A stretch of 64,000 bases of DNA, from NCBI RefSeq assembly GCF_045037415.1, contig NZ_CP173438.1. One strand, 5' to 3'. This document shows, one piece after another, positions 3,393 to 21,025 of this stretch. Below the pieces are notes generated by a model. That model did not search any database. It was not told the DNA's origin and saw only the letters and a program-made list of their open reading frames with translations. A program made the position numbers and the translations under genes. Each line of letters starts with the position of its first letter. Within the stretch, counting starts at the first letter, position 1. This DNA is from Escherichia coli. Lineage in GTDB: Bacteria; Pseudomonadota; Gammaproteobacteria; Enterobacterales; Enterobacteriaceae.

Positions 3393-3509
3393 TATATGCC
3401 CCTTATGGAATTTTTAGTATTTAGCCGTCCAGATGTTTACACATCCATAATTGGCGGTTACTGTATATTCCTCAAGCGCAAATTATTCATGCCGAAGTGA
3501 AGGACTTTC
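3393..3509. promoter_or_regulatory. Divergent metE/metR control region with MetJ/MetR sites expected
   Basis: 117-bp divergent intergenic region; contains AGATGTTTACACATCC, which resembles tandem met-box-like octamers. Site positions not mapped. Confidence 0.4.
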
Positions 3510-17105: not shown

Positions 17106-18008
17106 ATGAAAAAAACGCTCGCAACATTATTTTTATTAACCTGTCTGGGGTCATCATCCGCTTATGCGGATAACGCTTTGATTTTACAAACGGATTTTAG
17201 CCTGAAAGATGGTGCCGTCTCGGCGATGAAAGGGGTCGCATTCGGTGTTGACCATAATCTTAAAATCTTTGATTTAACACACGAAATTCCACCGTATAAC
17301 ATCTGGGAAGGCGCTTATCGCCTGTATCAGACTGCCAGTTACTGGCCGCAAGGTTCGGTGTTTGTTAGCGTGGTCGATCCAGGTGTTGGTACAGACCGTA
17401 AATCGGTAGTGCTGAAAACCAAAAACGGTCAGTACTTCGTTTCACCAGATAACGGTACGCTCACGTTGGTGGCGGAATCGCTGGGTATTGAGAGCGTCCG
17501 GCAAATCGATGAAAAAACCAACCGTCTGAAAGGTTCCGAAAAGTCATATACCTTCCATGGTCGTGATGTATATGCCTACACCGGTGCGCGTCTGGCTTCC
17601 GGGGCGATCACGTTCGAGCAGGTGGGGCCAGAGCTTCCTGCAAAAGTTGTCGAACTTTCTTATCAGAAAGCCAAAGCAACAAAAGGTGAAGTGAAGGGCA
17701 ATATCCCGATTCTCGATATTCAGTACGGCAACGTCTGGAGCAATATCAGCGACGAGTTGCTGAATCAGGCAGGAATCAAACTCAACGACACGTTGTGTGT
17801 GACCATTTCCGAAGGTTCCCAGCAAAAATACGCAGGGAAAATGCCGTATGTCGCAAGCTTCGGCGATGTGCCGGAAGGCCAGCCGATGGTGTATCTGAAC
17901 AGCTTATTGAATGTTTCCGTGGCGCTGAATATGGATAATTTCGCGCAGAAACATCAGGTTGCGTCTGGTGCTGACTGGAATATTGATGTGAAGAAGTGCG
18001 CTAAGTAA
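17106..18008 (+). CDS. DUF62 / SAM hydroxide adenosyltransferase-like protein with N-terminal signal peptide
   Basis: 300-aa ORF; MKKTLATLFLLTCLGSSSAYA signal peptide (AXA site); then LQTDFSLKDGAVSAMKGV...DLTHEIPPY...VVDPGVGT...VSPDNGTLTL, the conserved N-domain pattern of DUF62. Starts 82 bp after yigE with a GAAGGGAAA RBS. Confidence 0.7.
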   Translation: MKKTLATLFLLTCLGSSSAYADNALILQTDFSLKDGAVSAMKGVAFGVDHNLKIFDLTHEIPPYNIWEGAYRLYQTASYWPQGSVFVSVVDPGVGTDRKSVVLKTKNGQYFVSPDNGTLTLVAESLGIESVRQIDEKTNRLKGSEKSYTFHGRDVYAYTGARLASGAITFEQVGPELPAKVVELSYQKAKATKGEVKGNIPILDIQYGNVWSNISDELLNQAGIKLNDTLCVTISEGSQQKYAGKMPYVASFGDVPEGQPMVYLNSLLNVSVALNMDNFAQKHQVASGADWNIDVKKCAK

Positions 18009-18062: not shown

Positions 18063-20225
18063 TTACACCGTCTCCAGTCGGGCGTAAGCCGCCACCAGCC
18101 ATTTAATACCCTGGCCCTGGAATGCCACCTGCAAACGGCTATGCTCGCCGCTGCCTTCCATATTGACGATGGTGCCTTCACCAAACTTAGCGTGGCGTAC
18201 GCGCTGGCCGAGCTTGTAGCCGCTGTCGTTCTCGACCATCGGCGTCCCCATACGCTGATGGCTGACCGGGCGGCTTACCGTGGCGCGCAGGCGCACCTCT
18301 TCCACACACTCTTCCGGCAACTCACCGATAAAGCGCGACGGGCGATGGTAAACCTCTTTGCCATATAGACGGCGGGTTTCCGCGTAGGTCAGCGTCAGTT
18401 TCTGCATCGCGCGGGTTACGCCAACGTAGGCCAGACGGCGTTCTTCTTCCAGACGCCCGCCTTCATCTAGCGACATCTGGCTTGGGAACATGCCCTCTTC
18501 CATACCAACGATAAACACCTGCGGGAATTCCAGACCTTTCGCCGAGTGTAGCGTCATCAACTGCACCGCGTCCTGCCAGGTATCCGCCTGCCCCTCGCCC
18601 GCTTCCAGCGCCGCATGGGAGAGGAATGCCTGCAGCGGCATTAAATCTTCGTCTTCTTCGTTGTAGCTGAACTGGCGCGTTGCCGTCACCAGTTCCTCTA
18701 AGTTTTCGATACGCGTCTGACCTTTTTCGCCCTTCTCCTGCTCGTACATGGTGCGCAGGCCGGAGTCTTTAATTACCCGGTCAGTCTGTACATGCAGCGG
18801 CATATCGGCAGTTTCCTGCGCTAAGGCGTCGATCAGCTCCATAAACCGCTGTAAGGCGCTGGCAGCACGTCCGGCGAGGGCTTTTTCCTGCAACAGTTCA
18901 CGACATGCCTGCCAGAGTGTTAACTGGCGATCTCGCGATGTCTGACGTACCACGTCCAGCGTCCGGTCACCAATACCCCGCGTTGGCGTATTCACCACAC
19001 GCTCAAAGGCCGCGTCGTCGTTGCGGTTGGCAATCAGGCGCAGATACGAGAGCGCATCTTTGATTTCCTGGCGTTCGAAGAAGCGCATCCCGCCGTAAAT
19101 ACGATACGGCATACTCGCCTGCAATAACGCCTCTTCCAGCACACGCGACTGGGCGTTGCTGCGGTAGAGAATGGCGCACTCAGCGAGCGCCCCGCCGTTG
19201 TCCTGCCAGGTTTTGATGCGATTAACCACAAAACGCGCTTCGTCGAGTTCGTTAAAAGCGCAATAAAGGGAAATCGGCTCACCGTCCGCGCCATCGGTCC
19301 ACAGTTTTTTACCCAAACGCCCGTTGTTGTTTTCAATCAGGGCGTTCGCGGCGCTCAGAATATTGCTGGTAGAGCGGTAGTTCTGCTCCAGACGGATAGT
19401 TTCAGCACCGGGGAAATCATTGAGGAAACGCTGAATATTCTCCACCTGCGCTCCGCGCCAGCCGTAGATTGACTGATCGTCATCGCCAACGATCATCACT
19501 TTGCCGGTATCGCCCGCCAGCAGGCGGATCCACGCATACTGAATGTTGTTGGTATCCTGGAATTCGTCCACCAGGATATTGGTAAACCGTTCGCGATAGT
19601 GCTGAAGGATATGCGGCTTGTTAAGCCACAACTCGTGAGCACGTAGCAGCAGCTCGGCGAAGTCCACCAGGCCCGCGCGGTCACACGCTTCCTGATACGC
19701 CTGATACACCTTCTGCCAGGTCTGCTCCACCGGATTACCGTAGCTCTGAATATGATGCGGACGCAGCCCCTCATCTTTCTGGCTGTTGATGTACCACATT
19801 GCCTGACGCGGCGGCCACTGCTTCTCGTCGAGATTCATCGCCTTGATCAAACGCTTAAGCAGACGTAGCTGGTCTTCACTGTCGAGGATCTGGAAATCCT
19901 GCGGCAGGTTGGCGTCCATATGGTGCGCACGCAGCAGGCGGTGCGCCAGCCCGTGGAAGGTGCCGACCCACATACCGCCCTGGCTAGTGCCCATCAGTTG
20001 CCCGATACGATGACGCATCTCCGCCGCCGCTTTGTTGGTAAACGTCACCGCCATAATCGAATACGGCGAGCAGTTTTCCACGCTCATCAACCAGGCGATA
20101 CGATGCACCAGTACGCGCGTCTTACCACTGCCCGCGCCCGCCAGCACCAGAAGGTTGCTGCGTGGCGCGGCCACCGCTTCGCGCTGTTTGTCATTAAGGC
20201 TGTCGAGCAGGTAAGAAACGTCCAT
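18063..20225 (-). CDS. uvrD: DNA helicase II (UvrD)
   Basis: ORF 18063..20411; conserved start at MDVSYLLDSLNDKQREAV gives 720 aa; Walker [12 protein letters not shown]. Confidence 0.97.
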   Translation of the reverse strand: MDVSYLLDSLNDKQREAVAAPRSNLLVLAGAGSGKTRVLVHRIAWLMSVENCSPYSIMAVTFTNKAAAEMRHRIGQLMGTSQGGMWVGTFHGLAHRLLRAHHMDANLPQDFQILDSEDQLRLLKRLIKAMNLDEKQWPPRQAMWYINSQKDEGLRPHHIQSYGNPVEQTWQKVYQAYQEACDRAGLVDFAELLLRAHELWLNKPHILQHYRERFTNILVDEFQDTNNIQYAWIRLLAGDTGKVMIVGDDDQSIYGWRGAQVENIQRFLNDFPGAETIRLEQNYRSTSNILSAANALIENNNGRLGKKLWTDGADGEPISLYCAFNELDEARFVVNRIKTWQDNGGALAECAILYRSNAQSRVLEEALLQASMPYRIYGGMRFFERQEIKDALSYLRLIANRNDDAAFERVVNTPTRGIGDRTLDVVRQTSRDRQLTLWQACRELLQEKALAGRAASALQRFMELIDALAQETADMPLHVQTDRVIKDSGLRTMYEQEKGEKGQTRIENLEELVTATRQFSYNEEDEDLMPLQAFLSHAALEAGEGQADTWQDAVQLMTLHSAKGLEFPQVFIVGMEEGMFPSQMSLDEGGRLEEERRLAYVGVTRAMQKLTLTYAETRRLYGKEVYHRPSRFIGELPEECVEEVRLRATVSRPVSHQRMGTPMVENDSGYKLGQRVRHAKFGEGTIVNMEGSGEHSRLQVAFQGQGIKWLVAAYARLETV

Positions 20226-20283
20226 TGGCACCGCCGCGTAAAAATAGGTTGGGCGGAGAAGCGCAACGCCCTCCGCCAAAAAG

Positions 20284-20299
20284 CTGGGTATATATACAG
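20284..20299 (-). promoter_or_regulatory. LexA (SOS) box upstream of uvrD
   Basis: Minus-strand reading CTGTATATATACCCAG fits the CTGT-N8-ACAG consensus (half-site variant CCAG), about 60 bp upstream of the uvrD start. Confidence 0.75.
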
Positions 20300-20308
20300 A
20301 TTTGCTGA

Positions 20309-21025
20309 TTATATCAGCGAGGTCAGAGATGCCAACCGGGAAATTTCCAGATGCGGCAGTAAACGGCTGTCCCAGGTTTGCATCAGATCGCCATTTTCCG
20401 GTCTGATCCAACAGGCCTGCATTCCGCTGCGAATTGCCCCACCCACGTCAGTGGTGAGATCGTCCCCGACATGTAAGATCTCGCCGATCGGCACGTTGAG
20501 TTTTTCCGCCGCCAGGAAGTACATATCGCTGAACGGTTTTGAGCGCCCGTGCGGGCCAGCGCGCAGCACAAACTCAAAATAATCCCCCAAACCAAACAGT
20601 TCCGGCTGGGCGTTACCGTTGGTGATCGCCACCAGCGGCCATTTCTTCGCCAGCTGTTTTAAGGTGTCGTGGGTTTGCTGCGGGACGTCGATCCGGCTGC
20701 GCCATTTGGCAAAGTTGATCATTGCTGCATGTGCGCCTGCACTGGCTTCTTCGGCACTCAGCCCGGCGTCGAGCATCGCTTGTTCAATCGAACGAAAACG
20801 CCAGCGCGTCACGTCGTGATAAATCTCAGGTTCCGCTTCCCGTACCGCCTGGCGCAGGCGTTGCAGATCTTCATTCTGGAAGCTGCGCAGCGCCGGATGA
20901 TAATTTTGCACAAAGGTAAGCGCCTCTCGCTCGGTGCGCAAAATCACCGGACGGTTATCGTAAAGGGTATCATCCAGGTCAAAGGTGAGCGCCGAGATGC
21001 GCCCCAAAGGCCGGTAAAAACGCAT
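20309..21025 (-). CDS. yigB: HAD-family FMN/5-amino-6-ribitylaminouracil phosphate phosphatase
   Basis: 238-aa ORF with HAD motif I ([11 protein letters not shown]); stop/start overlap with xerC. Confidence 0.9.

Follow-up and report, generated by a model that had tools for sequence, protein, structure and literature searches.

We analyzed a window of 64 kb of Escherichia coli DNA (64,000 nt), within which the site of interest lies at the junction of yigB and uvrD. Both genes are encoded on the minus strand, and yigB is the last gene of the dapF-yigA-xerC-yigB cluster. Its stop codon is TAA at positions 20311–20309. The ATG of uvrD, which encodes DNA helicase II, is observed at 20225–20223, and the reading frame ends at 18063. 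The gap between the two genes (20226–20308) is exactly 83 bp. For the gene names we relied on how RefSeq annotates K-12 MG1655 and an E. coli record with identical sequence. Over the 181 bp that surround the LexA box, the DNA is 100% identical to K-12 MG1655, and the literature on K-12 is thus directly applicable to this locus. The elements assigned to the junction are listed below, as read along the minus strand.

20309..21025, minus strand: yigB coding sequence, 238 aa (ORF list and RefSeq annotation of the identical E. coli record and K-12 MG1655)
20335..20330, minus strand: −35 element TTGGCA of the predicted uvrD promoter, formed by the yigB Leu-Ala codons TTG GCA (promoter scan)
20316..20308, minus strand: extended −10 element TGaTATAAT of the same promoter, with the hexamer at 20313–20308 (promoter scan)
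20300..20303, minus strand: predicted transcription start, an A at around 20301 (placed about 7 nt after the −10 hexamer by standard spacing)
20299..20284, minus strand: LexA operator (SOS box) CTGTATATATACCCAG, at approximately +3 to +18 of the predicted start (motif scans, conservation, and literature)
20277..20252, minus strand: leader hairpin GGCGGAGGGCGUUGCGCUUCUCCGCC / GGCGGAGGGCGTTGCGCTTCTCCGCC, at approximately +25 to +50 (fold and cross-species recurrence)
20244..20240, minus strand: T-run (UUUUU), beginning 7 nt after the hairpin stem (sequence)
20223..20232, minus strand: uvrD translation start region, with a Shine–Dalgarno-like GGUG at 20232–20229 and the AUG at 20225–20223 (upstream sequences of 80 loci)
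18063..20225, minus strand: uvrD coding sequence, DNA helicase II, 720 aa (ORF list and RefSeq annotation)

The original prediction had placed a LexA box in this gap. Its coordinates and distances are correct: on the yigB side, 9 bp lie between the stop codon and the box, and on the uvrD side, 58 bp lie between the box and the ATG. The 83-bp gap was also confirmed. At the start of uvrD, the sequence GGTGCC(A/T)ATG is kept across the Enterobacterales in the upstream sequences of 80 loci. The uvrD frame is also open on the 5′ side of the annotated ATG, through the leader and into yigB, which yields a 782-aa ORF starting from a TTG at 20411 (18063–20411, minus strand). This extended ORF looks incidental; the homologues all begin with MDVS. 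On the other side of uvrD, between uvrD and yigE, a 300-aa gene annotated as belonging to the SAM hydrolase/SAM-dependent halogenase family is found on the plus strand (17106–18008). It is absent at that position in K-12, which marks it as an accessory insertion beside the 3′ end of uvrD.

A consensus scan of the region returned a sole sigma-70-like site. It consists of TTGGCA, a spacer of 16 bp, and TATAAT with an upstream TG, and matches the sigma-70 consensus in 11 of 12 positions. This predicted uvrD promoter is contained in the final nine codons of yigB and extends over the yigB stop codon. Within the −10 hexamer, TA comes from the end of the Ile codon ATA of yigB, TAA is the stop, and the final base is intergenic. 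Transcription of uvrD is predicted to start around 8 bp past the yigB stop codon (about 3,997,905–3,997,908 in K-12 NC_000913.3), which would give a leader of approximately 76 nt. The uvrD locus has no match in the TSS/TTS tables of SMRT-Cappable-seq (PMC6131387) or in Ettwiller 2016. The placement proposed here is based on the match to the consensus and on conservation.

The comparative set comprised 80 uvrD loci, with one genome per species, and yigB is upstream of uvrD in around 50 of these. Besides Enterobacterales, the loci with yigB upstream include Moritella, one Oceanisphaera assembly, and some others. In the majority, TTGGC(A/T) or TTGGAT is followed by 16 bp and TATAAT, placed identically relative to the yigB stop codon, with a LexA box downstream. 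Nearly all of the Enterobacterales loci carry a box of the type CTGT-N8-(A/C)CAG after the −10 element. A TATAAT-type −10 element with a variant box, (A/T)TGTATAAATAACCAG, is present in the Vibrionaceae, where yigB is not upstream. No LexA box was found upstream of uvrD in the Shewanella loci sampled. Of 5426 complete E. coli genomes, 5425 have a match to an 801-bp query from around the site. The 126-bp control region (20215–20340) is at least 99% identical in 5401 of the 5425, while the surrounding 801 bp (19900–20700) reach this level in only 802.

The codons of yigB bear the imprint of the promoter. In 46 Enterobacterales loci, the Leu codon at position −8 is TTG in 98%, whereas other Leu residues nearby use five to six synonymous codons. 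The codon for Arg at −9 is CGG in 96% of those loci that have Arg there. The last residue of yigB is Ile in 63% of the loci, and its codon is then always ATA; the stop codon is TAA in 100%. In contrast, the four spacer codons (−6 to −3) vary freely, each with three to five synonymous codons and a share of 0.35–0.5 for the commonest. A promoter within a coding sequence would be expected to leave this pattern of frozen hexamer codons and free spacer codons. The two hexamers (yigB codons −8/−7 and −1/stop) are internal to the upstream ORF, with constraint at the DNA level. The 11/12 site within yigB, its fixed position, and the codon footprint bear out the earlier claim that the uvrD promoter overlaps the upstream operon at its end. 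Its retention over the stop codon of yigB in the Enterobacterales and beyond shows a regulatory signal constraining the codons and the stop of an unrelated gene.

A perfect 10-bp palindrome, GGAAATTTCC, is located upstream of the −35 element (20338–20347, minus strand) in the yigB Glu-Ile-Ser codons. Conservation of its core, GAAATTTC, is wide, with ATT as the Ile codon in 98% of the 46 loci. The palindrome may act as an A/T tract of the UP-element type or bind a protein.

The operator CTGTATATATACCCAG reads CTGGGTATATATACAG on the plus strand and starts 9 bp after the predicted −10 hexamer. It is contained in the 20-mer ATCTGTATATATACCCAGCT (20301–20282, minus strand). The operator is a 16-bp CTG-N10-CAG palindrome with a TA-rich center, near to TACTG(TA)5CAGTA, and it is conserved upstream of the orthologues. 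It has two mismatches to the 16-nt palindromic consensus CTGTATATATATACAG. No other site in the 64 kb is within three mismatches of this consensus, and 0.05 such sites would be expected by chance. On a rough heterology-index (HI) matrix, which was assembled from 26 LexA sites of E. coli other than that of uvrD, the box tops the 64 kb with an HI of 7.0; the runner-up has an HI of 10.5. A search of the 64-kb window with the 20-mer LexA consensus (three or fewer mismatches) gave zero matches, because the bases flanking the uvrD box are non-consensus.

The LexA site of uvrD is, to our knowledge, present in every list of SOS boxes. Easton and Kushner reportedly described control of E. coli uvrD by LexA as well as control by attenuation in 1983 (Nucleic Acids Res 11:8625), as the title of that paper indicates. 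A study from 2024 places uvrD among the classic SOS genes, with an HI of 8.5 and an induction of around 2-fold (PMC11228462). Mutagenesis of the uvrD promoter by Reg-Seq gave one repressor site, which was matched to LexA by its motif; the database LexA site for uvrD is graded as "low-evidence" in the same work (PMC7567609). A uvrD promoter–GFP reporter is UV-inducible and falls in the "early" class (PMC5999292). Salmonella uvrD has a single LexA box 105 bp from the start codon and shows 13.9-fold induction (PMC8072944). SOS control of uvrD has also been established experimentally in V. cholerae (PMC4439123). The SOS listing, the Reg-Seq repressor site, the inducible reporter, and the conservation support the identification of the motif as the uvrD LexA operator in the original prediction.

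Other LexA-like sequences were also seen. In around ten other Enterobacteriaceae, the −10 region itself is a CTG-N10-CAG, CTGATATAATCACCAG, situated 21–22 bp (two helical turns) upstream of the main box; the loci listed for this feature are L006, L007, L008, L009, L012, L013, L016, L029, L039, L041, and L048. Its HI on the rough matrix is only 15–17.6, which is borderline, and we do not claim this second box over the −10 element as an operator. The E. coli equivalent (20317–20302) ends in CAA and has an HI of 22.7. In L012, L041, and L048, the main LexA box begins with TTG and not CTG. The second-best LexA-like 20-mer in the window is TACTGTATATTCCTCAAGCG (3459–3478, plus strand; rough HI 10.5). 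Its left half is perfect, and its right half has CAA in place of CAG. It is probably a chance half-site. The ORF just downstream of it is one that we take to be metR.

Between the operator and the start codon, the nascent RNA contains a stable GC-rich stem-loop (20277–20252). The fold has a ΔG of −17.9 kcal mol−1 and a z score of −2.2, and 4 of 200 shuffled sequences were equally stable. The hairpin is followed by CAACCTA and then by TTTTT, which corresponds to 3,997,964–3,997,968 in K-12. The distance of 7 nt between the stem and the T-run is a non-canonical geometry for a terminator in E. coli. A strict terminator scan made no call at the E. coli hairpin and T-run, and a looser scan called only a weaker sub-hairpin (ΔG −6.9). 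With the strict scan silent and the T-run displaced, termination may be weak in E. coli. The hairpin is a candidate attenuator, and RNA polymerase coming from yigB encounters no terminator-like element before it. Hairpin and T-run fit the "attenuation" in the title of Easton and Kushner (1983). The original prediction was right about the operator and its distances from the two genes, and had overlooked these two elements.

A hairpin with ΔG ≤ −8 kcal mol−1 is present in 32 of the 45 loci that have enough leader. In most loci it starts within a few nucleotides of the end of the box; the hairpin sequences are unrelated, and the leader is not alignable. Over the 45 loci, the mean z score of the leader hairpins relative to shuffles is −2.0, with z ≤ −1.64 in 24. 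A hairpin with a T-run is observed in 22 of 52 loci, as compared to 19% of shuffled sequences, and tails of the textbook terminator kind occur in several species (L014, L017, L029, L034, and L041 among them). The hairpin is absent in four species with very short leaders (L006, L016, L030, and L033). Its position is kept while its sequence has turned over, which argues that the structure is selected and functional. We saw neither a leader peptide nor an antiterminator or ligand-sensing element in the uvrD leader, and Rfam gave no RNA family in 19800–20800; regulated attenuation is therefore not evident. A fold of the whole 88-nt leader has no overall excess stability (z +0.4), and only the local hairpin stands out.

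In one E. coli genome of the set (L003), a stem pair of the hairpin is lost through a G-to-A substitution. The 5′ arm of the hairpin, GGCGGAG (20271–20277, minus strand), nearly duplicates the Shine–Dalgarno region of uvrD, GGCGGTG (20229–20235, minus strand). Both are complementary to the 3′ arm, CTCCGCC (20252–20258, minus strand). From this repeat, one can conceive of another fold in which the ribosome site of uvrD is sequestered; the first hairpin is far more stable.

Read-through from the upstream operon had been put forward as a potential second input to uvrD, and this is qualitatively borne out by published transcripts. Supplementary Data 3 of the SMRT-Cappable-seq study extends the RegulonDB uvrD operon b3813 to b3812|b3813 (PMC6131387). 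An operon is called "extended" in that study when at least one full-length read covers the known operon plus an extra gene (PMC6131387), and the entry thus means that a yigB–uvrD RNA exists. From the yigB stop codon to the LexA operator, nothing resembles a terminator, so that transcripts from yigB meet the operator and then the leader hairpin. Transcripts from the uvrD promoter must cross this hairpin as well. The size of the read-through input is therefore uncertain, and the hairpin may limit it.

Neither the rows listed in the 3′-end table of Adams et al. 2021 nor its table of Rho-dependent ends obtained with bicyclomycin contains a 3′ end at the yigB–uvrD junction; the latter has neighboring entries on both sides. 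These are Rho-dependent (bicyclomycin-sensitive) 3′ ends inside xerC (K-12 position 3,996,822) and after uvrD (4,000,389). The 3′ end in xerC corresponds to position ≈21386 of the window, on the minus strand. It suggests that many transcripts of the upstream operon never reach yigB. In Salmonella, neither lexA(Ind−) nor recA changes the subpopulation that is uvrD-ON in the basal state (PMC8072944). This LexA-independent basal expression fits a LexA-independent supply of uvrD; other explanations exist. The yigB–uvrD transcript is a LexA-independent route for such a supply and may explain the observation in Salmonella.

Could the CTG-N10-CAG sequence be a chance palindrome in an AT-rich promoter region, with no regulatory role? 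We give this next to no credence, and it is already contradicted. The bare motif is indeed frequent (20 occurrences in the 64-kb window versus 14 expected), and the induction of uvrD is a modest 2-fold or so (PMC11228462), but in the 64 kb no site other than the uvrD box comes near the consensus, with 0.05 expected. It is kept at the same place across the Enterobacterales, with a variant in the Vibrionaceae. A repressor site (PMC7567609) and UV-inducible activity (PMC5999292) have been assigned to the promoter, and SOS control has been shown in Salmonella (PMC8072944) and V. cholerae (PMC4439123). The motif as LexA operator is the reading that we retain. A different question is whether the leader hairpin is simply the terminator of the dapF-yigA-xerC-yigB unit, in which case uvrD would be insulated, read-through would be negligible, and the LexA-controlled promoter would effectively be the sole input. 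At least one full-length primary transcript spans yigB and uvrD (PMC6131387), although the "extended" label requires just that one read, and RegulonDB lists uvrD as its own operon. The hairpin is the first terminator-like element after yigB, and a T-run follows it in 22 of 52 loci; in E. coli, however, the displacement of the T-run by 7 nt from the stem predicts leaky termination. The hairpin is also downstream of the uvrD promoter, and so acts on transcripts from that promoter as well. The Rho-dependent 3′ end inside xerC already trims the upstream transcripts, which would favor insulation, whereas the LexA independence of the basal expression in Salmonella (PMC8072944) speaks against it. On balance, we consider full insulation possible but rather unlikely, and prefer a hairpin that some of the transcripts from yigB would cross.

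A further possibility concerns the fate of the read-through RNA. In this RNA, the segment of yigB around the −35 element, GGAAAUUUCCCGGUUGGCAUCUCUG (20348–20324), is modeled to pair with the uvrD ribosome site and first codons (20236–20214), such that only mRNAs from the uvrD promoter would be well translated. We hold this to be very improbable. The minimum-energy fold of a 201-nt read-through RNA forms an interrupted helix of 24 pairs, in which UUGGCA and UGCCAA are exact complements. In E. coli, the calculated cost of opening the ribosome site is 6.1 kcal mol−1 for the RNA from the uvrD promoter, as against 14.4–14.7 kcal mol−1 for most of the read-through RNAs tested (8.8 kcal mol−1 for one read-through 5′ extent), and only 1 of 60 controls with shuffled upstream sequence reached the native cost. 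Over 43 loci, however, the opening energy is 8.40 for the native and 8.15 for the shuffled upstream sequences (Wilcoxon p = 0.35), the duplex strength has a median percentile of 0.25 across species, and the E. coli duplex is only at the 4th percentile of the genomic background. Each of the partners is conserved for its own reason, namely, the promoter hexamer with the YigB codons and the start region. The 5′ partner is inside translated codons of yigB, where ribosomes would keep unwinding it, and the idea was noticed post hoc. The pairing stands out in E. coli alone, and conservation was lacking over 43–50 loci; the idea was rejected as a general feature and kept as a low-probability reading. 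For E. coli and its closest relatives, it would mean, with equally slight likelihood, that the yigB read-through RNA is translationally muted for uvrD, as a chromosomal analogue of the fold-back inhibition of IS10. If this were true, substantial UvrD would come only from transcripts begun at the LexA-controlled promoter.

Taken together, we are highly confident that the region is the known uvrD control region, with a promoter embedded in yigB, a LexA operator at the start of transcription, and a leader hairpin. At SOS promoters, LexA competes with RNA polymerase, and derepression takes place through RecA-stimulated self-cleavage of LexA. In the mechanism that we propose for uvrD, a strong sigma-70 promoter (TTGGCA, 16 bp, TGnTATAAT) would be provided by the last nine codons of yigB and its stop codon. 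A LexA dimer on the operator would overlap the footprint of RNA polymerase and thereby block initiation or escape. Upon DNA damage, RecA-stimulated cleavage of LexA would relieve the repression of uvrD. In the leader of approximately 76 nt, the GC-rich hairpin with its T-run would stop a fraction of the transcripts before uvrD. Transcripts from upstream promoters would run through the operator and the hairpin, and some would reach uvrD as a LexA-independent basal supply, which the hairpin may limit.

The level of UvrD matters for nucleotide excision repair, mismatch repair, control of RecA filaments, and transcription-coupled repair. The SOS promoter–operator of uvrD and its leader attenuator are already known and are textbook material. 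What is added here is the conservation of the promoter over the yigB stop codon with its codon footprint, the turnover of the leader hairpin, and a pointer to the published yigB–uvrD transcript.

The closest known system is the uvrD promoter, operator, and attenuator of E. coli K-12, which is this very locus. It has identity over the 181 bp, the same box ATCTGTATATATACCCAGCT (HI ≈8.5), and the same hairpin and T-run, and there is no sequence difference in the uvrD region. For IS10 and IS50, Davis, Simons, and Kleckner reportedly described in 1985 a fold-back inhibition of transposase translation in read-through transcripts. The pairing considered above for uvrD would resemble it, since both pair a sequence found only in external transcripts with a ribosome-binding site. 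The modeled uvrD pairing would differ in that its 5′ partner is in a translated coding sequence and in that its conservation does not extend past the close relatives of E. coli.

The uvrD leader resembles intrinsic terminators and 5′-leader attenuators in that a GC-rich hairpin and then a T-run separate the promoter from the start codon. Unlike in intrinsic terminators, the T-run in E. coli comes 7 nt after the stem and not directly after it. Compared with leader attenuators, the uvrD hairpin would also serve as the end signal of the upstream operon. With the SOS promoters of recA, lexA, sulA, uvrA, uvrB, and umuDC, uvrD shares a 16-bp CTG-N10-CAG with a TA-rich center, which for uvrD is predicted to lie over the core promoter or start. 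It differs from other SOS promoters in its operator of middling affinity (HI 8.5) and its small induction of approximately 2-fold (PMC11228462). It also differs in that the promoter is in the coding end of an unrelated upstream gene, and in that the leader hairpin would be a second, LexA-independent layer.
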